From Escherichia phage vB-Eco-KMB43: a DNA stretch of 64,000 bases. The stretch is from the sequence record OR525698.1; one strand, 5' to 3'. Positions within the stretch are counted from its first letter, which is position 1. Each line of letters begins with the position of its first letter. The translations under genes and the position numbers were made by a program. The notes beneath the pieces were generated by a model. It was not told where the DNA came from. It did no database searches and saw nothing but the letters and a program-made list of their open reading frames with translations. Positions 1-35,498 of this stretch are shown one piece after another.

Positions 1-119
1 TCTAGATATGTAAACATACCATCAATATTAGGTCTTTGTTCGTAACTCCAACAATCACGCAAAATACGCTTTTCGTATTCGCCAACCAACGCATAGGTCT
101 TACCTTCTTCCCATTTCAT
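1..119 (-). CDS. hypothetical protein, N-terminal part only (gene runs past window start); paralog of 124..621
   Basis: ATG at 119-117; translation MKWEEGKTYALVG resembles MKWELGKMYTLDG of the next ORF. Confidence 0.4.
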   Translation of the reverse strand, partial: MKWEEGKTYALVGEYEKRILRDCWSYEQRPNIDGMFTYL

Positions 120-123
120 AATA

Positions 124-621
124 TTATCTCTCATTTTTGATACGTGATTCTAATTGGATCATACGGTCGCGCGTTTGCTTGTATTCACGGATAGCACCGA
201 TCCGGCTAGGCATACCATCTAGGACGCTCTTAATCCCTTCTAGGGTAGTGATTTTAGCAATGCTATTATGTAACCCCATCTTATCGATCAACTGAATGTC
301 GTAGGCTTCCATAAGCAGACCCAGACGTTCTAAGGTTAGATCTGGTTCTTTAACTTCTTTAAAGAATCGACGTTCACCAGCCCAAAACCACGCACCGTGC
401 GCACCAATTGGAGTGTCTCGAACAGAAATACATTTACCATCACTTAACGAGATTTCAAGAACATGACCCTCATTACTCATAACCTCGACTGTAAAAGGAC
501 GTCCATCAAGAAACTCAGCAACTTGACGGTTGATTGACAGTTCAGATTTGGTAAATTCTGCTTTCTTCTCATCACCATCAAGAGTGTACATCTTACCCAA
601 TTCCCATTTCATAGCAATCAC
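124..621 (-). CDS. hypothetical protein (probable start near 612)
   Basis: ORF track; start overlaps nrdG stop; N-terminus paralogous to ORF at 1..119. Confidence 0.55.
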   Translation of the reverse strand: MIAMKWELGKMYTLDGDEKKAEFTKSELSINRQVAEFLDGRPFTVEVMSNEGHVLEISLSDGKCISVRDTPIGAHGAWFWAGERRFFKEVKEPDLTLERLGLLMEAYDIQLIDKMGLHNSIAKITTLEGIKSVLDGMPSRIGAIREYKQTRDRMIQLESRIKNER

Positions 622-4980: not shown

Positions 4981-5014
4981 GGGAGTATTATAGCATACTC
5001 CCTTCGCATGTCAA
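4981..5014 (-). promoter_or_regulatory. early promoter with inverted repeat GGGAGTAT..ATACTCCC spanning the -10
   Basis: tgtcaa at 5009-5014; perfect 8 bp inverted-repeat arms at 4981-5002. Confidence 0.55.
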
Positions 5015-6189
5015 ACACTAACTTTTTTCTTTACTGCTTTCACCTTCTGGCGAATTGCTCGAATCTCTTCGATCTCTTTTTCAGTCTCTTTAACAATTTC
5101 TTTGCGATTCTGAATATCTGTATCTAGATTCTCATCGAGTTTAGGAAGCATGTCGATCAAGAACTTTTTAAGGTCTTTCAGGTTGCGAATAACAGTACCT
5201 TCACCCATTACCGCAACACCCACACCATCCGGCAGATCACCAAACAGCTTAACCAGTTCAGACAGATGATCATGATCTTCTAGTGCTTCTTCCGGTTCAG
5301 ATGGCAGTTCAACAAAGTTATAACGTTCATCATTGCTGATCAAGTGATACCAGCAAAGCCCGAAAGATTTCGGTGTATATTCTACACCATCAATTTCAAC
5401 CGCGTCAACACTTCCATAATCATCTACTTTAGTTACCTTAAATCCTTGTCCCAGCTTTTGAACAATTTCAACAACATGACTTGATACAGTTTCAGCGGTA
5501 AACCAATATGGCAAATTATGCTGATTTGGCTTGTAGCGTTCACCTACTTTAAATCTCTGACCATCCGCTTGCATAGCATGAAATTGTTGTTGCGTGATTT
5601 CCGCGAAGTATTCAAATTCGCTACCGTCAAACAAGCAATTCCATTGATCACAAAAACGATCTGCCTTAACAGTTTCACCTTTCGCGGTGATCATGGTAGC
5701 TGATCCGTGCAATTCTTCTTCAACTAAAAAGCCATATTCGACAAAATCAACAAGTTTCATAGCTTCTTTGTGATCTGGATCATGCTCTCCCCAGAATCGC
5801 TTAAATTCTTGCAAACCTTCTGGGGTAAACGAATAACATTTACCTTTTTCAAAGTAAGTCGGCATTGCATCCTCTTTCTTGTTCATCGCTTCGTATGCCT
5901 CTTTTGAGATACGTTTAAAGTATTTGCGCTCATTGTTCATAATCATAGTAGCCCAATAATCCACAATATCATTAGCGGAATAAACTACATCTCCAGCTTC
6001 AATAGTAATAACATGACCGTGGTCATCTTTTTCTAATACTTTAAAGCCCTTTTCTACGATTTCAGCAACCCGAATATGACCACGGCGCGAAGCATCGGTC
6101 AGAATAATTGAATAGCGAGAAAAGTCTAGAAACTCATCTTTACCGCCTTCACGGAATGCATAGTAATGACCTTCAAAGAATTTAGCCAT
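5011..6189 (-). CDS. hypothetical protein with three copies of an ~80 aa repeat domain
   Basis: Internal repeats (YYAFREGG...KGFKVLEKDDHGHV; QGFKVTKVDDYGSVDAVEIDGVEYTPKSF) shared with ORFs 6246..6830 and 6839..7159. Confidence 0.65.
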   Translation of the reverse strand: MAKFFEGHYYAFREGGKDEFLDFSRYSIILTDASRRGHIRVAEIVEKGFKVLEKDDHGHVITIEAGDVVYSANDIVDYWATMIMNNERKYFKRISKEAYEAMNKKEDAMPTYFEKGKCYSFTPEGLQEFKRFWGEHDPDHKEAMKLVDFVEYGFLVEEELHGSATMITAKGETVKADRFCDQWNCLFDGSEFEYFAEITQQQFHAMQADGQRFKVGERYKPNQHNLPYWFTAETVSSHVVEIVQKLGQGFKVTKVDDYGSVDAVEIDGVEYTPKSFGLCWYHLISNDERYNFVELPSEPEEALEDHDHLSELVKLFGDLPDGVGVAVMGEGTVIRNLKDLKKFLIDMLPKLDENLDTDIQNRKEIVKETEKEIEEIRAIRQKVKAVKKKVSV

Positions 6190-6245: not shown

Positions 6246-6830
6246 TCAAGCGTTAAATGACTTTTGGATCTCTTTCAGTTCAGCTACTTTATCGGCGCTA
6301 TATTTTGCTTGATGTTCCATGCGCTTAAGCTCACCTTTGATATAGGTTTCTAGCTTAGGTTTATTCTCAATCAGAAAATCTTTCAAGTCATCGGCATTTT
6401 TAAAGTATAGCTGATTGTCAAAGCTAAAATCTTCCAGCGTCAATGATACCAAAGAAGACTTCGCAAACAAGTTAATCAGACCTTCCAGAGATTCTTCTTT
6501 CTTAACTGGTTTCATTTCTTCAAACTGCTTTTTAGTGATGCGTTTAAAGTATTTGCGCTCGTTTGCAGCAATCAGAACAGATGCACCTTCATACCCATGA
6601 GTTTCTACCAGATACACACGCCCCATCGCATCAACAGTGAGAACTTTAAAGCCGTTACAAAGCACGTCATACAAGAACTTATTATGTTGCGGACATCGTT
6701 TGATAAATTCTGCGGCTGTTTCTGCACTACGGAAAGTGTAATAACGACCTCGTTCAAAAACAGCATCATTTGAAGACTTAGCCGGATACAATTTATACGT
6801 TTTCTGTACCATAATATAATCCTCTATCAT
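6246..6830 (-). CDS. hypothetical protein, paralog of 5011..6189 (one repeat domain plus helical tail); probable start 6812
   Basis: Shares NERKYFKRI(S/T)K and GFKVL motifs with neighbour; internal ATG at 6812 (MVQKTYK). Confidence 0.6.
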   Translation of the reverse strand: MIEDYIMVQKTYKLYPAKSSNDAVFERGRYYTFRSAETAAEFIKRCPQHNKFLYDVLCNGFKVLTVDAMGRVYLVETHGYEGASVLIAANERKYFKRITKKQFEEMKPVKKEESLEGLINLFAKSSLVSLTLEDFSFDNQLYFKNADDLKDFLIENKPKLETYIKGELKRMEHQAKYSADKVAELKEIQKSFNA

Positions 6831-6838
6831 TTCACTAA

Positions 6839-7159
6839 TTAAACAGCACGGAACAGAATGCGCTCACACGGAAGCAGCATAAATTCCCAACGCGGGTCAA
6901 AGTCTTTAGCGGTGTATGTTTTCCCATCAACCGCTATTTCACTTACATAACCAACAGGTGACACTTTAAGAACAGTAAACCCATTCTTGATGACTTCGTA
7001 GGTATCTTTCACCCCTTCGTATTCATCATCTAAGAAGTCTTTATGTGCTTGCTCAGATTTAAAAACATAGGCCACACCGGATTTAAACATCTTACGCATT
7101 GTTGATTCTCCTTCTTGATTAGATGGGAGTATTTTACTACTCCCATTTCTTATTGTCAA
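6839..7159 (-). CDS. small hypothetical protein, single repeat domain of the same family (probable CDS 6839..7099)
   Basis: Track start is TTG inside the promoter -35; ATG at 7099 (MRKMFKS) has GGAGAATCAACA RBS; NGFTVLKVSPVGYVSEIAVDGKTYTAKDF matches the family repeat. Confidence 0.5.
   Translation of the reverse strand: MTIRNGSSKILPSNQEGESTMRKMFKSGVAYVFKSEQAHKDFLDDEYEGVKDTYEVIKNGFTVLKVSPVGYVSEIAVDGKTYTAKDFDPRWEFMLLPCERILFRAV
7125..7159 (-). promoter_or_regulatory. early promoter with GGGAGTA..TACTCCC inverted repeat
   Basis: tgtcaa at 7154-7159; inverted repeat 7125-7144. Confidence 0.55.
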
Positions 7160-11806: not shown

Positions 11807-12127
11807 TTAGTGAATTAACTCTACACCAAAATGAGGCACAGAGAACGCCTTACGAAACACATATTCATCATGTTTAGGAATCGCGCCTAACCTCTCTATT
11901 TCGCTCGCTAACACGATAAACTGTTTATCTGGTGCATATGCCTTGTGTGCTTCAACAACGCACGGAAAACGCGTTTTAGAGAGTTCTGGATAGTTTTCTG
12001 AATCCAGAAGGACAATGAATACCCTGTTACATTGATTGTAGAATCCTGTTTTTGATTTCATCAAGTTTTCTTCTCTGTACAATTCGTGCAATCTTCCTTT
12101 CATGATTTCGTTGGTTCTTGTCTTCAC
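11807..12127 (-). CDS. hypothetical protein (start probably 12103 or 12061)
   Basis: ORF track; overlaps 3' end of next ORF in another frame. Confidence 0.45.
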   Translation of the reverse strand: MKTRTNEIMKGRLHELYREENLMKSKTGFYNQCNRVFIVLLDSENYPELSKTRFPCVVEAHKAYAPDKQFIVLASEIERLGAIPKHDEYVFRKAFSVPHFGVELIH

Positions 12128-12368
12128 AGTTTACCCACTCAACAAGATCTTTACCTAACTCGAAAGCCCATTCTCGGTCTTGCTTTACATTTTGTAGGTA
12201 TGGACTTTCCGACACTCGACGAAGTGATCTTGTCGTAACAAGAATGATCCCAGGAATGTTCGGATGTTCCTTTCCATATACAATAGGACGCGAGTCACTA
12301 TCAATACCCTGTAAGAAGGTGTATCCTGAATCACTTAGGATCATATACATTTTCATTTCATACATCAC
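12027..12368 (-). CDS. hypothetical protein
   Basis: ORF track; several in-frame ATGs near the start. Confidence 0.45.
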   Translation of the reverse strand: MMYEMKMYMILSDSGYTFLQGIDSDSRPIVYGKEHPNIPGIILVTTRSLRRVSESPYLQNVKQDREWAFELGKDLVEWVNCEDKNQRNHERKIARIVQRRKLDEIKNRILQSM

Positions 12369-12622
12369 AGTTTCCTCAACCAGTTATTAAAGCGAGTAAA
12401 CCATGATGCTTTTCGTGCTTCTTTTACTTTATATGCACGCAAACCACTGAAACACCATTCATAATCATCACTGAAACATGATTCAACAGGAACACCCGCA
12501 TTTCGTAGTTCTCTGGTCTTTATCATGAATCCTTGACATAAGGGGCGACCTTCAACAATGATAGGAAGTTTAACTTTTTCCATGAAAGTATACCCAGCAC
12601 GGTCAATAATTTCAATCTTCAT
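12365..12622 (-). CDS. small hypothetical protein, YEWCF family paralog
   Basis: MKIEI...YEWCFSG shared with 12633..12845. Confidence 0.55.
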   Translation of the reverse strand: MKIEIIDRAGYTFMEKVKLPIIVEGRPLCQGFMIKTRELRNAGVPVESCFSDDYEWCFSGLRAYKVKEARKASWFTRFNNWLRKL

Positions 12623-12632
12623 AATATAATCC

Positions 12633-12845
12633 TCAATTAGTTATAGCGCGTGCTTCGTTGCCAGTAAAGCACCATTCATACTTACGATTATGAATACCTG
12701 AAACAGATACACCAGCTTTGATCAATTCTCCAGTTGCCACAAGAAACGATCCGCCAAACTTCTTACCTTCTACAACAATTGGTAATTCAACACCTTTCAT
12801 AAAGCTAAATGCAATATCTTCTAAAGTAAAAATTTCAATTTTCAT
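12633..12845 (-). CDS. small hypothetical protein, YEWCF family paralog
   Basis: MKIEI...KYEWCFTG; adjacent paralog. Confidence 0.55.
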   Translation of the reverse strand: MKIEIFTLEDIAFSFMKGVELPIVVEGKKFGGSFLVATGELIKAGVSVSGIHNRKYEWCFTGNEARAITN

Positions 12846-14090: not shown

Positions 14091-14312
14091 TTAAATGATC
14101 TCTGCTTCACCGTTAAGGAAGAAAGACCATGTTTTGTTAGGATAGCGAAGCGCCCATGATTCAGCAGTTTTAACACCAGCTTCAAACAATTGACGGCTGG
14201 TTACTTTAGCCATACCATCTTCGATGGCAACGTTTTCAATAATCATCGGGTACTTAGCGCCACGCATGAAACCGAAGCCAGCGGAAGATTTGATAATTTT
14301 AACAGTTGCCAT
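14091..14312 (-). CDS. small hypothetical protein, distant member of the YEWCF-like family
   Basis: Similar size and pattern (GFMRGAKYPMIIEN...AGV) to 12365..12845 ORFs; own promoter. Confidence 0.5.
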   Translation of the reverse strand: MATVKIIKSSAGFGFMRGAKYPMIIENVAIEDGMAKVTSRQLFEAGVKTAESWALRYPNKTWSFFLNGEAEII

Positions 14313-19446: not shown

Positions 19447-19941
19447 TTATTGGTCTACCTTCAAAACAACCGCCGACATTTTACCCGCCAGTCGTTTTGG
19501 ATTCTCTATAATCATTCGACAGCATAGACCGTGATACGGCTTGCCGTCTTCAATTAGGTCTACTGTCATCCCGATCCACATGTTACCGTCAGTAATTTCT
19601 AATCGATTAGGTCGGTCTTCCATTTTCAGGAAGTCGAAGATCTCCGGCAAACGAGTTTCTATCTTATTGAATAGTTCCATTGTCTTATGTTCATCGATAT
19701 GACGATCGGTTAGACGGTCGATCATATGCGGACTAAAGCGAATAAAAATATACTCACCATAACCATCATTCAAACACTTTTCTTTGATCTGCGCATTGGT
19801 TTTGCGCATTTCGGTTTCGAAGAATCTACGCAGCTTACTACGGCGAACATGTACGTTAATTGTTTCCATTTTATTATCCTTTCTTAAACAAATTGCGAAT
19901 CCAGTATACAAACGGGATTTCTTTAAACTTGAACTTGTCAA
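19447..19941 (-). CDS. hypothetical protein (probable CDS 19447..19869)
   Basis: Internal ATG at 19869 (METINVH) preceded by AGGA RBS. Confidence 0.5.
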   Translation of the reverse strand: MTSSSLKKSRLYTGFAICLRKDNKMETINVHVRRSKLRRFFETEMRKTNAQIKEKCLNDGYGEYIFIRFSPHMIDRLTDRHIDEHKTMELFNKIETRLPEIFDFLKMEDRPNRLEITDGNMWIGMTVDLIEDGKPYHGLCCRMIIENPKRLAGKMSAVVLKVDQ

Positions 19942-20269
19942 TAGTTAATTCTTTAGTAGCAAGATGAATACCATAAGCATCATGTGTAACTATATGCCAT
20001 TTTCTATAGTCCAAATGTGAACAACCGTCTGGATCTAGGTTAATAAGAGTTTCTCTCTCACTAGGATTATTTTTCCACAATTTTGTAATAGGATCGCACA
20101 TAATTCGACCTAGCGTACCATGAATAATCTCACAACGGTAAAGTTTTCCAGCAGTGAGATAGGCGCACCCGTCATAGTCGGTATAAACAAACACTTCTTT
20201 AACACTCATTTTAATACTCCTTTGTTGTTTCGATGGGGGTATATTACTACCCCCGATCATGTGTGTCAA
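19874..20269 (-). CDS. small hypothetical protein, GCSHL family (probable CDS 19874..20209)
   Basis: Track start lies in the promoter; ATG at 20209 with GGAGTATTAAA RBS; DPDGCSHLDYRKWHIV motif. Confidence 0.5.
   Translation of the reverse strand: MTHMIGGSNIPPSKQQRSIKMSVKEVFVYTDYDGCAYLTAGKLYRCEIIHGTLGRIMCDPITKLWKNNPSERETLINLDPDGCSHLDYRKWHIVTHDAYGIHLATKELTIDKFKFKEIPFVYWIRNLFKKG
20241..20269 (-). promoter_or_regulatory. early promoter (TTGACA -17- TAATAT) with GGGGGTA..TACCCCC inverted repeat
   Basis: tgtcaa at 20264-20269; inverted repeat 20235-20254. Confidence 0.6.
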
Positions 20270-20530
20270 CTACTTTTTCAAGATTTTTTTGATTGCATTC
20301 CAAAGACCTTTATTTCCAGGTTGTTTTGGTTCTTCGATCAGTGTCCATGTTCGACCGTCTAAGTGTGCACAATTTTTAAGACAAATAAAAATCTGGTGTC
20401 CCTTATCATCACGGATATAACCACTATTCGCAAATCTTTCATGTGGTGTATATTCATACAGTGTATTAGGTGTAATATACTTGCGGTTACTATAAGGTGT
20501 CATCACATACATCATGGTACTAACTCCCAA
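20270..20530 (-). CDS. small hypothetical protein, GCSHL family paralog
   Basis: CLKNCAHLDGRTWTLIEEP motif shared with neighbours. Confidence 0.5.
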   Translation of the reverse strand: MGVSTMMYVMTPYSNRKYITPNTLYEYTPHERFANSGYIRDDKGHQIFICLKNCAHLDGRTWTLIEEPKQPGNKGLWNAIKKILKK

Positions 20531-20706
20531 TTATCACCGCGAAGATGAGAACATCCACCATCAAGAAGGATCGTAATACGATAACCTATATCATCTTTGA
20601 TGTAACCGATTGTCGGTGGATTTTCGTAGTCTCGTGTCGGGGTAAAATCATACATCTTTCCTGGCGTAATATCTTGTCCTTTATTGCTATTGGTATAAAC
20701 TTTCAT
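20512..20706 (-). CDS. small hypothetical protein, GCSHL family paralog
   Basis: LLDGGCSHLRGDNWELVP motif. Confidence 0.5.
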   Translation of the reverse strand: MKVYTNSNKGQDITPGKMYDFTPTRDYENPPTIGYIKDDIGYRITILLDGGCSHLRGDNWELVP

Positions 20707-20727: not shown

Positions 20728-21426
20728 CTAACCACGGGTATAGTGTTCCAGAACAACTGTCAGATGAATATATTCTAATAAATCTTTCCAAAAGTCAACA
20801 TCTGGTTCTTCCGGCATACCGTTTTTCTTTGCCTCTTCACGAGCGAGTTTAACACGCTCGTAGAGATCTTTCAATTCTTCCCGCACATTATCAAAGGTTC
20901 TTTCTCCTAACTTACACGCTAAAATAGAAGAACGTCGCGCGAGCGGGAATTGTAGATCACCTGTCTGATAGATTTCAAGTAGCTGATAACCAACACGCAG
21001 AGCATGAGAAAGATCTTTCCAGTTACTGAAATACTTTTCAGATTTGGCTACCTGCTTTTTGAGATAGCCAGACAAACCCCACATACCAACATGATAGAAT
21101 TTATCTCGATGTGTTCGGATGTATTCCCATTCTCTGGAGGATTCAATCAACATGTTACTAGGAGCGTGCACCATGTCAATAGCGCCGATATCGCCTTTAC
21201 ATGCCAGATTGATAAACCGTTTTAGACTGAACATATTAACATCAATATCGTCTTTGGTGTTCTTGATACCTTGACCGCTAGTGCTTTGGTCATAGTGTTC
21301 TTTCATCGATCCTAAGATAATTTCTTTCGCAGTCGGAACAAAGATACCACGATAATCTTTATCGGAATTTTCAGTATCAAGGCCGTATAAGTGAGATCCG
21401 AAGACCATTTTAACCATTGTATGCAT
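20728..21426 (-). CDS. nucleotidyltransferase-fold protein (pol-beta/MNT-like GS...D.D motif) with C-terminal helical domain
   Basis: MVFGSHLYGLDTENSDKDYRGIFV fits the GS-x(9-13)-D-x-[DE] minimal nucleotidyltransferase signature. Confidence 0.55.
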   Translation of the reverse strand: MHTMVKMVFGSHLYGLDTENSDKDYRGIFVPTAKEIILGSMKEHYDQSTSGQGIKNTKDDIDVNMFSLKRFINLACKGDIGAIDMVHAPSNMLIESSREWEYIRTHRDKFYHVGMWGLSGYLKKQVAKSEKYFSNWKDLSHALRVGYQLLEIYQTGDLQFPLARRSSILACKLGERTFDNVREELKDLYERVKLAREEAKKNGMPEEPDVDFWKDLLEYIHLTVVLEHYTRG

Positions 21427-21470
21427 AATTAAACCCTCAGTTGATTAAGAGATTGCATCATATCATCATA

Positions 21471-21504
21471 AAACGAAAAAGCCAACCCTTTTCGGATTGG
21501 CTTG
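21471..21504 (-). terminator. rho-independent terminator after the grcA-like gene
   Basis: GCCAATCC-gaaaa-GGGTTGGC hairpin followed by a T-run on the minus strand. Confidence 0.65.
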
Positions 21505-28715: not shown

Positions 28716-28747
28716 TTTGATTCTCCTTTCGTTTGTTTGTGGGGGGT

Positions 28748-28776
28748 ATCTTACTACCCCCGTTTCATGTTGTCAA
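28748..28776 (-). promoter_or_regulatory. early promoter (TTGACA -17- TAAGAT) with GGGGGTA..TACCCCC inverted repeat
   Basis: tgtcaa at 28771-28776; inverted repeat 28741-28761. Confidence 0.6.
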
Positions 28777-31291: not shown

Positions 31292-31480
31292 TTTCGATTC
31301 CTCAAATGAAAATATTTATTAACAATTGTCGCTTTGCGACGTGCCGGAGGCACTGACTACTTTTTAACCGAAACAAATTTCTATTATTCTAAAGATCTTT
31401 CTTCGTTTTGGTTATGTTTTAACCAATAACTATATTTTTATACAGTAATAAATAAAACGGGTACTATACGAGGACTTCTT

Positions 31481-31735
31481 ATGACAGAAGACATTTTGTT
31501 AAAACTCTATGATCGTTTGGATAACGAATTAGCAACATTGCGGGGTGAAGTTCTCTATTTGTCTAAATGCAATACAGATCTGCTTAAGCAGATTGCAGAA
31601 AGGGATGATCAAATAAAATCCCTTTCAGGTGCATTACGTGATCGCGACAAGGCATTAGAGATTTTACAGCGTGTTACCAATAAGGAAGAATTAAAAGACT
31701 TCTTACATGGTTATGCTCATGCTATCGATCTATAA
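31481..31735 (+). CDS. hypothetical coiled-coil protein, opposite strand to its neighbours
   Basis: 84 aa ORF with GAGGA RBS; heptad-like sequence; ends at a terminator hairpin. Confidence 0.45.
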   Translation: MTEDILLKLYDRLDNELATLRGEVLYLSKCNTDLLKQIAERDDQIKSLSGALRDRDKALEILQRVTNKEELKDFLHGYAHAIDL

Positions 31736-31763
31736 TAAAAAAAAGCCCGTCAATGACGGGCTT
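31736..31763 (-). terminator. rho-independent terminator after gene 2
   Basis: AGCCCGTC-att-GACGGGCT stem followed by T8 on the minus strand. Confidence 0.75.
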
Positions 31764-31767
31764 AATG

Positions 31768-32589
31768 TTATGCATCCTTCCAAACTTTCCTTGCGTCGTA
31801 TTTCTTGCCTTTTGACATAAACTGATATGTCGGCATATAGATAATATTGCTCCAGTCTTTCGGGCTAATCTCAACAAGTTTTGTTTTAATGTGTCCCGGT
31901 AGATATGCTTTGATCATGTGGTCACTACCACGCATACCTTTTACATCGCTCCATTTGATTTTTAAGCGTGTTTTATTGCTCAAGGTAGGAGTAGATGCAT
32001 ATTGCTTTAAAAGTGCTTCCAGAAACTGCTGACGGGCTTTAGGCGTTACATAGTGTAAGTTAAGACCCAGCATTACAGTATTACCCGCCTTTGTCTTAGA
32101 ATCACCCAGACAAATGATCAGCGGGAAAACATCCCAATATGGCAAAGTGTCTTTATACTTCGCATCATACATAAAGGTATAGATTCGCCCTACTTGCGGT
32201 TTTACAATCTGGTGTCCCTTTATTCCCGCTTTTATTGTTTTAGTAAACCACTCCTGTGATTTTTCTTTAGGACGACTCTTTGATACAGCACGCATAGACG
32301 CACGAAAATCATTAATCATCATCATTGCGCGTTGCTGCTTATTGAGACCCTTTGCGCCTTTCCCTTTTAGTTTTTCAACTTCTATTGCTGTTTTAATTTC
32401 GCTTGCATAACGAGACATACTTTTAGTGAAAGTCGCATAGGCTATTCCCTTAGAATCTGCAAATGCTTTAGCTGTCATGCCTTTGGCTTTTGCTTTCGCA
32501 AATTCTACACCCAATTCGACCCACTGTTTAGACTTTCTTTTTTGGGGAGACGGCTTTTCGTCTTCTGTGATTATTTCAAATACGCTCAT
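31768..32589 (-). CDS. 2: DNA end protector protein
   Basis: Position and size as T4 gene 2 between genes 3 and 4; basic N-terminus. Confidence 0.65.
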   Translation of the reverse strand: MSVFEIITEDEKPSPQKRKSKQWVELGVEFAKAKAKGMTAKAFADSKGIAYATFTKSMSRYASEIKTAIEVEKLKGKGAKGLNKQQRAMMMINDFRASMRAVSKSRPKEKSQEWFTKTIKAGIKGHQIVKPQVGRIYTFMYDAKYKDTLPYWDVFPLIICLGDSKTKAGNTVMLGLNLHYVTPKARQQFLEALLKQYASTPTLSNKTRLKIKWSDVKGMRGSDHMIKAYLPGHIKTKLVEISPKDWSNIIYMPTYQFMSKGKKYDARKVWKDA

Positions 32590-32600
32590 AATATTATCCT

Positions 32601-33077
32601 CTATTTGTTAAGCCCTTTAAAGCCAAACACTTTCTTTAATGCATGTTCGGTGATGATCTTAAACTCCATGTTATGCTTTTGGCACAAATCAACCGCAGCT
32701 TTCCACTTTTCCGTGTTTACAGTATATGTGTAACACTCTTGCATGTATCTTTGCTTAGTCTTAGTGGTTATTCTTTTTGGCCTTTCCGGTGGCCGTGTCT
32801 CTTTTGCCGGTTTAACTTCCCATAAGAACTCTTTACCATCTACAAATTTCACCCAAAAATCCATATGATACTTTCTGGATCGTTTATCTGCGCTAGACCA
32901 GTAAGGTATAATCACACACTCAGAGTTCCATTTAGACACGCTAGGACTACGGTCCAAAAATTTCATTATGTGCAATTCCCAGCTTGATCTATAAGTGATT
33001 TTATGCAAGTTGTTTCCTTTGTACTTCTCAGGATTTTCTGGCTTGAACTTGCCCTTATAAGTGTTAGATCCTCCCAT
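32601..33077 (-). CDS. 4: head completion protein
   Basis: Position divergent from gene 53 as in T4; size similar. Confidence 0.65.
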   Translation of the reverse strand: MGGSNTYKGKFKPENPEKYKGNNLHKITYRSSWELHIMKFLDRSPSVSKWNSECVIIPYWSSADKRSRKYHMDFWVKFVDGKEFLWEVKPAKETRPPERPKRITTKTKQRYMQECYTYTVNTEKWKAAVDLCQKHNMEFKIITEHALKKVFGFKGLNK

Positions 33078-33092
33078 TTTAGCACCCTTTAT

Positions 33093-33100
33093 TATAAATA
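33093..33100 (+). promoter_or_regulatory. T4-type late promoter motif TATAAATA upstream of gene 53
   Basis: Exact TATAAATA 33 nt upstream of the start codon. Confidence 0.65.
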
Positions 33101-33132
33101 CATAATACTATTTATCAATTGAGGGTGCTAAA

Positions 33133-33687
33133 ATGCTCTTTTCTTTCTTCCCTGCCATTGAATACAACGGCAAGATGATTACTGACATTGTGCGCAATTA
33201 CCGCGCCTATTTCAACGCAATAATTTCTGATTATAACATACAAACATATTACATTCAAGGTAGTCCACGACCGGAACAAGTTGCATATGAAGTATACGGA
33301 AACCAACAACTTTATTGGATCTTGCTGATGCTTAATGACGTATACGATCCGTTCCATGACTGGATCACCGATCAAGAGACAGCATATGAATCAGCCGAAC
33401 AGCGATATGCAAATGTAGGAGGAAATCAAGTATTATACCACGTTGATATTGACGGAAACAAGTATTGGAATCTTACCGAATATCCGAAAGGATCAAGCAA
33501 TTGGTATGATAAAGGGGATATTCATCATCGTCATTTGCAGTTTCAAGGTGCACTATCGGCAGTAGACACACTGGAAGATGCGATCCTCCGTAATGAGGAA
33601 CGACGCAAGATCAAGATCATAGATCCTACACAAATTAAACAATTTATTAACGCATTCATTCGAGAAATGGAAAAGGCTGATGTGTAA
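33133..33687 (+). CDS. 53: baseplate wedge protein
   Basis: Immediately precedes gene 5 as in T4; late promoter upstream. Confidence 0.75.
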   Translation: MLFSFFPAIEYNGKMITDIVRNYRAYFNAIISDYNIQTYYIQGSPRPEQVAYEVYGNQQLYWILLMLNDVYDPFHDWITDQETAYESAEQRYANVGGNQVLYHVDIDGNKYWNLTEYPKGSSNWYDKGDIHHRHLQFQGALSAVDTLEDAILRNEERRKIKIIDPTQIKQFINAFIREMEKADV

Positions 33688-33698
33688 GGTGATTAATT

Positions 33699-35498
33699 AT
33701 GCTAATGTTTAATAACTCCGTTAAATGGTTTACCGGAATTGTAGAAAACAGGGAAGACCCATTAATGCTGGGGCGTGTTCAGGTTAGGATTCATGGTATA
33801 CATCCCTCGCTATCCGCACACGGTGACATTCAAGGTCTCCCAACCGAAGATCTATTATGGATTACGCCAGTACAAGATATTACAAGCGCGGCGATCTCCG
33901 GTATAGGTCAAAGCCCTACTGGTATTGTTGAAGGTTCAATGGTATTTGGTTTGGCTTTAGATGAACGTTATTTAAACTGCGTTATTCTGGGTACTATTGC
34001 CGGACAATATACAGAGAAACCACTCACTACAGAAGGTTTTTGCGACCCTTCTGGTGCATATCCTCGTTATATTGGTAATGATGTTAATATTCTTGCTCGT
34101 GGCGGTATTAACCCAGAAACCGGACAAACAACAAAACCTGATAGTGTCTATATTCGAGATGAAAACACTGGAGTTGCAGTAAATCCAGACGACGAGCCAT
34201 TAGACCAAATTCCGGTTGATGATAATCCTGATTTTACAATAGAAAAAATGCTGCGGGGCGATGAGGGATATCGCGAGAAATGGTATCTTGATTCAGAAGG
34301 ATATCCGACAATAGGCATCGGGCATTTGATCATTTATAAGAAAACCAGTGATCTGGGTATTATCAATAATGAACTTTCTAAGCTGGTAGGGCGTGAAGTT
34401 ACAAACGGAAGACTTACCGCCGAAGAAGTTAGTAAAGTATTTGCCGACGATATAGAAAAGACTCGTCGTGATATGCGCAAACATCCACGAATTGCACCTG
34501 TCTATAATAAATGTAATGCTTCTCGTCGTATGGCATTAGAAAATATGGCGTTTCAAATGGGTGTTGGTGGATTGGGTAAATTTAAGAATAGTCTTGCTGC
34601 GATGTTAGCGGAAGAATGGAAACAAGCCTATGATGGATTACGTCAATCTGTATGGGCTAACCAAACTCCAGGACGATCCAGCCGTGTTTCTAAAATTATT
34701 TTAACTGGTAACTTAGAATCATATGGCGTAATTGCTCCAAAGAAAGATGAATCTGTTTCTGATGATCCGCGAGCACGTTTGAGAAATGCCCGTATTGCTG
34801 CCTATAAGACGCAGAGAGCAGAAGAAGACCCAGAAGCACCGTTTACCCCACAAGACACACGAATCATGTTTAAAGAGCCTAAGAGTTCGTATTCTGCGAG
34901 GTATCCTTATAACCATGTGTACGAGTCAGAGAGCGGTCATATTATCGAGATTGATGATACTCCTTCTCACGAACGTTATCACCGCAAACATCCTTCTGGT
35001 ACATTTGAAGAAACCAGACCGGACGGAACGAGGGTAGAAAAGATTGAGGGTGATGATTATCTGATCGTTAAGCAAGGCCGGAAAGTCAACGTTAAGGGTA
35101 ATTTGCAAGTTGTTGTTGAAGGTGACGCGCAAGTTTATTATATGGGTAATGTAATGCAAACCGTTGATGGTAACGTCACTGAATTTATTCGTGGCAATGT
35201 TAATCAGACCGTTGAAGGTACTGCTAACATGCATGTTGTAGGTGATGTTACCGCTCAGCTTGACGCTAATTTAACGGCTAATGTCAAGGGTAATGCTGAA
35301 TTAATGATCGAGGGTAACACTACCGAAACAATTAAAGGTAACTATGATTTAACCGTTGAGGGTAATTTTAATATGACCGTCAATGGCACTAAATCAGATC
35401 AGGTTAATGGTGACTGGTCCCGTAATTGTGGTGCAAGCGTTAAAGATATTGCATCTGGTACAGTTAAAATTGATGGTAGCCGTATTGATCTTGGGTGA
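33699..35498 (+). CDS. 5: baseplate hub / cell-puncturing protein with lysozyme domain and C-terminal beta-helix
   Basis: Lysozyme motif DSEGYPTIGIGHL; C-terminal VxGxxxxx repeats (VEGDAQV, VDGNVTE, VEGTANM, IEGNTTE). Confidence 0.92.
   Translation: MLMFNNSVKWFTGIVENREDPLMLGRVQVRIHGIHPSLSAHGDIQGLPTEDLLWITPVQDITSAAISGIGQSPTGIVEGSMVFGLALDERYLNCVILGTIAGQYTEKPLTTEGFCDPSGAYPRYIGNDVNILARGGINPETGQTTKPDSVYIRDENTGVAVNPDDEPLDQIPVDDNPDFTIEKMLRGDEGYREKWYLDSEGYPTIGIGHLIIYKKTSDLGIINNELSKLVGREVTNGRLTAEEVSKVFADDIEKTRRDMRKHPRIAPVYNKCNASRRMALENMAFQMGVGGLGKFKNSLAAMLAEEWKQAYDGLRQSVWANQTPGRSSRVSKIILTGNLESYGVIAPKKDESVSDDPRARLRNARIAAYKTQRAEEDPEAPFTPQDTRIMFKEPKSSYSARYPYNHVYESESGHIIEIDDTPSHERYHRKHPSGTFEETRPDGTRVEKIEGDDYLIVKQGRKVNVKGNLQVVVEGDAQVYYMGNVMQTVDGNVTEFIRGNVNQTVEGTANMHVVGDVTAQLDANLTANVKGNAELMIEGNTTETIKGNYDLTVEGNFNMTVNGTKSDQVNGDWSRNCGASVKDIASGTVKIDGSRIDLG

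Follow-up and report, generated by a model that had tools for sequence, protein, structure and literature searches.

Three small paralogous genes upstream of regB in an RB49-like coliphage belong to a family of predicted SH3-like domains

We analysed a 64,000-nucleotide (nt) stretch of Escherichia phage vB-Eco-KMB43 (sequence record OR525698.1; hereafter the window) and found that three adjacent small genes at 19874-20706, which we call C, B and A in the direction of transcription, carry divergent copies of a single domain of ~60 amino acids (aa). The domain recurs across hundreds of protein clusters and is modelled as an SH3-like barrel. A sequence-only reading of the window had picked out the three minus-strand open reading frames (ORFs) by a shared G-C-(S/A)-H-L...W motif; this was borne out, with small corrections to the gene starts, and the motif is indeed common to all three, but the likeness spans the entire domain and not the C-terminal motif alone. 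The phage is a Krischvirus (an RB49-like, T4-type coliphage), the 2.1-kb array region being 96-98% identical to that of 58 Krischvirus genomes (RB49, phi1, JSE, GEC-3S, G2494 and others), and the array lies in a hyperplastic (accessory) region, between nrdC.11 and the endoribonuclease gene regB.

Results

A, B and C are paralogues

Formal pairwise alignment gave significant BLASTP matches for all three pairs. B and C share 40% identity over 63 residues (E=1e-13), and A matched C and B with E=4e-4 and E=2e-3, respectively. All three proteins also matched PHROG 6261 (A, E=1.1e-37; C, E=4.4e-27; B, E=6.4e-6), and B, in addition, is the core of PHROG 15978 (E=2.3e-60). These similarities indicate that A, B and C are homologous and, indeed, true paralogues. 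The opposite view, that the motif is shared by chance or that the ORFs are not genes, is already refuted by the BLASTP and hidden Markov model (HMM) statistics together with the purifying selection, canonical ribosome-binding sites and confident fold prediction described below, and we give it practically no credence. An HMM built from A, B and C found no fourth copy in the window, and family HMMs found none in those regions of G2494, the closest genome, that lie outside the window.

The domain defines a large viral family

To gauge the size of the family we relied on an exhaustive profile search (E up to 1e-3, clusters at 50% identity), which returned 923 protein clusters; a word-indexed search recovered close relatives only. 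Among the best 150 of the 923 clusters most are stand-alone proteins of 58-70 aa, and every member with readable context lies in a phage genome or viral contig. With a narrower alignment, nine related loci were found in the viral collection and no related locus in the bacterial genome collection. Several members (P0025, P0031, P0033, P0048 and P0074) carry two to four copies of the domain in one polypeptide. PHROG 6261 was matched by 105 of 114 wider family members.

The family consensus reads (Y)(I/L)T(A/P)GKxY ... IxDDxG ... CxHL ... W, with near-invariant HMM positions T15, K18, Y20, I37, D40, G42, C52, H54, L55 and W60. Of 161 members, 148 have Cys52 and 139 have His54; Ser takes the place of the Cys in 9, and Tyr or Phe that of the His in 16. 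Since the Cys and His of the CxHL motif can thus be replaced, a structural role is indicated for them, and not a catalytic or metal-binding one.

Some members are fused to other phage domains, mostly of unknown function. P0127 is joined to DUF3850, which matches PHROG 986 ('RNA-binding protein'); one fusion member has a sub-threshold Tad2-like match; and several share a domain without a name, 'PKTWGEMTDAEKGALLLA', or have a tail that matches PHROG 2201. Among the members checked, these partners gave no consistent functional pointer.

Curated resources were similarly uninformative. Pfam yielded nothing significant for A, B or C (E up to 1), nor for the 114 relatives at family level; a single one of the 114 matched Tudor_5 (E=9.5e-4), and five members had weak matches to DUF6501 (best E=0.0017). 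NCBIfam returned only sub-threshold matches to FosA motifs (13-19 bits, against cut-offs of 180-305), and PADLOC had no match for the family. The FosA/glyoxalase likeness of A, a short DPDG-type motif far under the cut-offs, was judged to be chance. Sequence searches of the PDB with a single sequence and with the family profile gave nothing credible, the best match being RNA polymerase subunit N (E=0.087). The family is named in no curated library.

The domain is predicted to be an SH3-like barrel

An AlphaFold2 model of C, the shortest of the three proteins, reached a predicted local distance difference test (pLDDT) score of 94 with a 14-sequence alignment. It is made up of five strands, the last of them preceded by a 3-10 helix, and is superposable on SH3 domains. 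The ~60-aa domain is predicted, at high confidence, to form a five-stranded barrel of the SH3-like kind. The model of A (mean pLDDT 72) places a barrel at residues 5-77 (core pLDDT 75-89), in which an insertion of ~10 aa enlarges the distal hairpin; residues 86-99 are predicted to be disordered (pLDDT <50) and are followed by a helix at 99-109. Foldseek against the PDB gave no E below 0.7, with Tudor domains among the weak matches, and the structural neighbours in BFVD are uncharacterised phage proteins.

Mapped onto the model, the conserved residues would fall at turns: TxGK in the diverging turn, DDxG in the distal hairpin and CxHL in the 3-10 helix. The most variable segment, both between paralogues and between alleles, lies between strands 2 and 3 (an n-Src-like loop, residues 22-32 of C), and the N-terminal loop and distal hairpin vary in the same two ways.

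B and A end in amphipathic tails

B, outside its domain, has a linker (EEPKQPGNKG) followed by the C-terminal tail LWNAIKKILKK, with a hydrophobic moment of 0.78 and a net charge of +5. We took as background the C-termini of the minus-strand ORFs of the window (mean moment 0.41, 95th percentile 0.67); the B tail equals the maximum of this set. The A tail, FVYWIRNLFKK, has a moment of 0.67 and a net charge of +3. Both tails have the sequence features of an amphipathic targeting helix, being short, C-terminal, two-faced and separated from the domain by a linker. Similar tails end the B-type relatives of other lineages (P0034 and an 87-aa gene of contig L006).

A cationic amphipathic tail also occurs in a second group of paralogues in the window (described below), where the 85-aa copy at 12365-12622 ends in SWFTRFNNWLRKL (its last 13 codons; moment 0.76) and its 70-aa neighbour has no tail, a one-with, one-without pattern like that of B and C. 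The tails of B, A and the 12365 ORF, 11-14 residues long with moments of 0.67-0.78, resemble membrane-targeting helices of the MinD/FtsA type; the tail of FtsA has a moment of 0.78. Amphipathic C-terminal helices can, however, bind proteins as well as membranes, and we treat a membrane-targeting role as a lead and not as a result.

The paralogues are old and under purifying selection

Nei-Gojobori ratios of non-synonymous to synonymous substitution rates (dN/dS), obtained for five genes extracted from 12 Krischvirus genomes, were 0.04 for nrdC.11, 0.25 for C, 0.17 for B, 0.12 for A and 0.04 for regB, which places A, B and C under purifying selection. The array was present in all 13 Krischvirus genomes inspected, isolates from several countries on three continents, and A was almost invariant across them. 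B falls into two old allele classes (...HERFANS...CAHLDGRTW and ...DERMSTY...CAYLDDRPW), with synonymous divergence (dS) of up to 1.6, and C into two or three. These classes of C and B were found in all combinations, and recombination therefore shuffles the two genes independently.

Two irregular copies were seen. FL04 has a C gene disrupted at its 5' end (locus L018 1601-1781), its locus being 14 bases shorter than those of relatives, with only a 41-aa C-terminal ORF annotated; the disruption reflects a natural knockout or else an error in sequencing. P0008 (L028 45-296, ERZ16268176:scaffold_28569) is an 83-aa hybrid of codons 1-39 of C and the second half of B, joined at a stretch of ~20 nt, CGGTTACATCAAAGATGATA, in which some C and B alleles do not differ. 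It may be a one-gene deletion that arose by recombination between the paralogues, or else an assembly chimera, because it comes from a single metagenomic scaffold and the gene lies 44 nt from the scaffold end.

By phmmer, A was more like outside members on unrelated contigs (P0163 and P0042) than like B or C, and B resembled P0034, a member of another T4-like lineage, more than it resembled C. Since A and B are thus closer to outside members than to their neighbours in the array, the paralogues must be old. The sequence-only reading had explained the array by local duplication and divergence, a frequent event in phage accessory regions. We agree that arrays of small paralogues are frequent there, and paralogous small proteins in an accessory region are what we found; a recent local duplication is not, the copies of the main array being ancient. 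The array changes through whole-gene gain and loss.

Family copies vary in number between nrdC.11 and regB

Copy number varies among the relatives examined, with two to six domains at the nrdC.11-regB locus of T4-like contigs: two in L006, three in the window and six in L025 (Table 1). In the T4-like contigs examined this interval is, thus, a hot spot for the family. A pair of C-like and B-like genes downstream of nrdC.11 already exists in the divergent contigs L006 and L024, and the PeSL stem-loop and -10 box of L024 (PeSL, promoter-early stem-loop; see below) are identical to those of the window. L006 also has a weak third family member upstream of nrdC.11. Because L006 lacks A and has its PeSL directly before regB, we infer that A was gained or lost as a cassette and is not a fresh tandem copy.

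Outside T4-like phages, members were met in three settings: a Vibrio phage (in a small-ORF cluster), a Klebsiella Jedunavirus (between head genes) and siphovirus-sized viral contigs (between morphogenesis genes). They are single copies there, save for a weak second copy in L030/L031. Such contexts are typical accessory or 'moron' behaviour. A six-frame scan of T4 from 58 to 68 kb found no family copy. We also considered homology to T4 Vs.3-5 and rejected it, since the family HMM run against Vs.3-5 and eight further small T4 proteins from that region gave a best E of 0.32 (0.5 bits).

Organization of the array

All genes of the array region are on the minus strand, in the order promoter- and hairpin-like site, nrdC.11, C, B, PeSL, A, regB (Table 1), with nrdC.11 as the conserved left border. 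We judged the true gene starts from Shine-Dalgarno sequences and from the annotation of 13 relatives. A starts at the ATG at 20209, and not at the TTG at 20269 given by a mechanical list of ORFs; B likewise starts at the ATG at 20515 and not at the TTG at 20530. Each real start of A, B and C is preceded by a canonical Shine-Dalgarno sequence that contains GGAG (sites at ~20220, 20526 and 20717, respectively), that of C being AGGAG. GGAG is the cleavage motif of RegB, according to the RB49 sequence record; the ribosome-binding site of regB itself reads AAGGAT.

The TGA stop codon of C and the ATG of B overlap as ATGA (20515/20512), an arrangement that predicts translational coupling of the two genes. 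B and A are separated by 60 nt, and the stop codon of A lies 4 nt from the start of regB; A and regB appear to form one PeSL-driven unit. Upstream of nrdC.11, the promoter-like site reads TTGGCT, 17 nt, TATGAT, with an extended -10 TG, and a terminator is annotated at the equivalent position in GEC-3S and G2494. This site is likely the start of an nrdC.11-C-B transcription unit.

Table 1. Features of the array, of its counterparts in related contigs and of the other paralogous groups in the window
Feature	Position	Strand	Description
Terminator-like hairpin and overlapping sigma-70-like promoter	21457..21503	-	Promoter scan; relatives' annotation
nrdC.11 nucleotidyltransferase	20728..21426	-	Upstream of C; RlaP Pfam match on orthologues
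Gene C	20512..20706	-	64 aa; RB49p097 orthologue; minimal stand-alone predicted SH3-like 'CxHL' domain
Gene B	20270..20515	-	81 aa; RB49p096 orthologue; domain, Pro/Gly-rich linker and predicted cationic amphipathic C-terminal helix
PeSL (promoter-early stem-loop)	20235..20269	-	Putative; between B and A; pattern search, promoter scan, hairpin energy
Gene A	19874..20209	-	111 aa; RB49p095 orthologue; divergent domain, predicted disordered linker and C-terminal amphipathic helix
regB endoribonuclease	19447..19869	-	Relatives' annotation; Pfam REGB_T4 on L006 and L025 orthologues
L006 (32.7 kb)	nrdC.11-regB interval		C-like and B-like gene; PeSL directly before regB; no A
L024	downstream of nrdC.11		C-like, B-like (P0034), then PeSL; contig ends there
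L025	nrdC.11-regB interval		Five genes, six domains; one gene (P0025) is a two-domain fusion
Second paralogue pair	12365..12845	-	85 aa and 70 aa; PHROG 7345
Third PHROG 7345 member	14091..14312	-	73 aa; PHROG 7345, E=5e-34
MKWExGK(T/M)Y family pair	1..612	-	ORF 124-612 (MKWELGKMY) and ORF 1-119 (MKWEEGKTY..., cut by the window edge)

An insertion polymorphism adjoins the array. A homing/HNH endonuclease gene (~530-590 bp) lies between vs.6 and nrdC.11 in JSE, G37-3, JK32, phiS and FL04 and is absent from the window, RB49, G2494, W115 and E26. The nrdC.11 product is 232 aa in Krischvirus against 327-338 aa in metagenomic T4-like contigs (L006 4004-4987; L025 1574-2590), the Krischvirus form being without a middle segment of ~100 aa found in the L006 and L025 forms.

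A PeSL element precedes A and regB

The spacer between B and A reads TAG-TTGACA-CACATGATC-GGGGGT-AG-TAATAT-ACCCCC, followed by AAGGAG and the ATG of A. TTGACA, 17 nt and TAATAT make up a sigma-70 consensus promoter, and a GGGGGT/ACCCCC stem-loop overlaps its -10 box (hairpin -16.8 kcal/mol, z=-3.1); the element begins right after the stop codon of B and stands ahead of the Shine-Dalgarno sequence of A. This pattern occurs at two sites in the window (5 overlapping matches), against 0.02 matches expected. At this position the annotation of GEC-3S has a promoter and that of G37-3 a terminator. By its sequence, the spacer is a PeSL of the kind described by Arbiol et al. 2010, in the subclass whose stem-loop overlaps the -10 box (PMC2839356). 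In phi1 and RB49 these elements combine an early promoter with an attenuator, flank ORFans and mediate their excision and insertion; their activity and the mini-circles arising from recombination between PeSLs were established by reporter assays and inverse PCR (PMC2839356). The main texts of that paper and of Comeau et al. 2014 (PMC4122927) mention no regB, nrdC.11, paralogues or this locus.

The second site, at 28741-28776 on the minus strand, is nearly identical (TTGACAACATGAAACGGGGGTAGTAAGATACCCCCC). Behind it come a Shine-Dalgarno sequence and a small ORF that begins MKFIGKTFMFVAGTLF... and whose product looks like a membrane or secreted protein.

Other paralogous groups in the window

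The sequence-only reading had named two further groups, both of which proved real. The ORFs at 12365-12622 and 12633-12845 are paralogous (BLASTP, 45% identity, E=4e-19), and the weaker relative suspected at 14091-14312 gave a BLASTP match with E=2e-5; all three match PHROG 7345. A possible fourth member, very divergent (HMM E=4e-4), lies at 12027-12368 on the minus strand, directly downstream of 12365-12622.

The other group is the pair of ORFs sharing MKWExGK(T/M)Y at the left edge. Inside the window their match covers only 17 aa (E=0.002), and the family is only partly visible because the window edge cuts the second ORF; the full-length counterparts in G2494 are homologous, with E down to 1e-13. 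The 162-aa protein of ORF 124-612 matches PHROG 5347 (E=2.5e-46). The expansion of this domain is far larger than the two left-edge ORFs: G2494 has four adjacent MKWExGKTY genes at 31402-33713 (locus L019), with five domains, one gene being internally duplicated. An HMM of the family found weaker copies in the window in ORFs 5011-6189 (two domains), 6246-6830 and 6839-7159 (minus strand). PHROG matches to goF and PinA-type families were weak (E about 0.1).

Discussion

Taken together, the results turn three 'hypothetical proteins' into one defined domain family of ~900 clusters, with a fold model, a signature, a genomic hot spot and plausible mobility by PeSL. The reading of its function that we favour, though tentatively, is that A, B and C act early in infection as binding modules without enzymatic activity, serving host takeover or counter-defence.

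The array would have grown in two ways, C and B arising from an old tandem duplication and A coming in through cassette recombination mediated by PeSLs. Early promoters of the sigma-70 type would drive transcription of the three genes immediately after infection, and their mRNAs are probably shut off by the RegB encoded just downstream, cutting at GGAG sites, because this RegB motif is present in all three Shine-Dalgarno sequences. Each protein would then grip one host (or phage) macromolecule in takeover or counter-defence. The conserved turn residues probably hold the barrel together, and the variable loops (n-Src-like, N-terminal and distal hairpin) probably set target specificity. The cationic tails probably serve to tether B and A, either at the inner membrane or on a partner, with C as the soluble form.

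Several points weigh against parts of this proposal. The tails could be protein-binding helices instead of membrane anchors, and the helix of the A tail was modelled with low confidence (pLDDT 42-53). Residues were placed on the fold from the DSSP string and textbook SH3 topology only. The free reassortment of C and B alleles argues against a tight allele-specific C-B pair, and the raised divergence of B and C reflects old alleles being exchanged (dS up to 1.6), and not demonstrated positive selection. Finally, C may be dispensable, since it is frameshifted in FL04.

Other explanations have to be considered. The proteins might be nucleic-acid-binding barrels (Tudor, Sm or KOW-like) that work with RegB on early mRNA, for instance as a specificity or chaperone factor. 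Indeed, the array is immediately upstream of regB in all three T4-like contexts that could be read through (the window, L006 and L025); A lies in the PeSL-driven unit of regB, only 4 nt from its start; and both the DUF3850 fusion of P0127 and the Tudor domains among the weak Foldseek matches favour such a barrel. The domains, however, are acidic to neutral (C has an isoelectric point of 5.0, and the domains of A and B have 6.4 and 6.8, respectively), and an RNA-related domain is fused in only 1 of ~30 multidomain members. No regB is annotated in the regions read of the Vibrio phage, the Klebsiella Jedunavirus or the siphovirus-sized contigs, and members elsewhere often lie between morphogenesis genes. 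The synteny with regB in T4-like phages may be mere inherited gene order. We regard this explanation as unlikely.

Alternatively, the genes could be functionless passengers, neutral or selfish, of PeSL cassette shuffling that are tolerated in a hyperplastic region. This would suit the spread of two to six copies at the locus and the frameshifted C of FL04, and cassettes of PeSL and ORFan are known to excise and insert (PMC2839356). It is hard to reconcile with dN/dS of 0.12-0.25 for all three genes, with the near-invariance of A in 13 genomes and with a domain conserved over 923 clusters; PeSLs, moreover, do not flank C and B individually. We hold this explanation to be distinctly improbable.

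A further proposal is that Cys-x-His forms a metal, redox or catalytic site, the proteins being small enzymes or metalloproteins. The prevalence of Cys52 and His54 speaks for such a site, as do the earlier 'GC' that 43 of 161 members have, A among them (DGCAYL ... DGCSHL), and the four Cys and the His of A. Yet Cys gives way to Ser, and His to Tyr or Phe, in 6-10% of members, and a natural class of B alleles has CAYL in place of CAHL. C and B each have one motif Cys and one His, too few for an intramolecular site, and the enzyme matches are negligible, that to FosA being far under its cut-offs (as above) and that to glyoxalase I covering 29 columns. We therefore think this proposal very unlikely. 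All three of these explanations have some support and more evidence against them.

A bolder extension of the effector proposal is that the 'CxHL' barrels are a widespread, as yet unnamed class of early effectors, each copy neutralising or hijacking a different host factor (a defence sensor, say, or a membrane-associated complex), with tailed copies acting at the inner membrane and the copy-number expansions between nrdC.11 and regB recording an arms race. We consider this possible but doubtful.

Arrays of small paralogous accessory genes, and PeSL cassettes in RB49-type phages, have been described before, and the finding by itself is unsurprising. Among T4-type hyperplastic regions such an array is nothing out of the ordinary; what it offers is a defined, testable family. 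Many counter-defence and host-takeover factors are products of the small early genes that fill the variable parts of T4-type phage genomes, most of which are still unnamed; our literature search found no paper combining Krischvirus with anti-defense. The family provides a concrete and cheap set of targets for deletion, toxicity and pull-down screens.

The fold and the locus can each be compared with known systems. The model shares with SH3-like barrels in general (eukaryotic SH3, Tudor and bacterial) its five strands, the 3-10 helix ahead of the last one, the long first loop and the tightness of the distal hairpin. Sequence identity to these barrels is, however, only 4-15%, there is no SH3 or Tudor match in Pfam at family level, and the family has a signature of its own (TxGKxY, DDxG, CxHL, W). 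Another small phage barrel, Gp54 of Bas11 (PDB 9axb), is a non-essential protein of 66 aa that triggers CapRel-SJ46 (PMC11578894). It is similar to the family in size and in that its primary function is not known, but it is a six-stranded barrel of rare topology from another phage group, with 6% identity, and a family-profile search of PDB sequences (E up to 10) did not return it among the matches. The likeness is one of fold only, and the family does not belong with Gp54.

T4 itself also has three small early genes of function not known, vs.3, vs.4 and vs.5, directly upstream of regB. The PeSL/ORFan cassettes of RB49 and phi1 are like the array in phage group, in being made of small hyperplastic-region genes and in the promoter/stem-loop that stands ahead of A. 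In contrast to those cassettes, C and B are coupled with no intervening PeSL, and A, B and C are not orphans but members of a family of 923 clusters.

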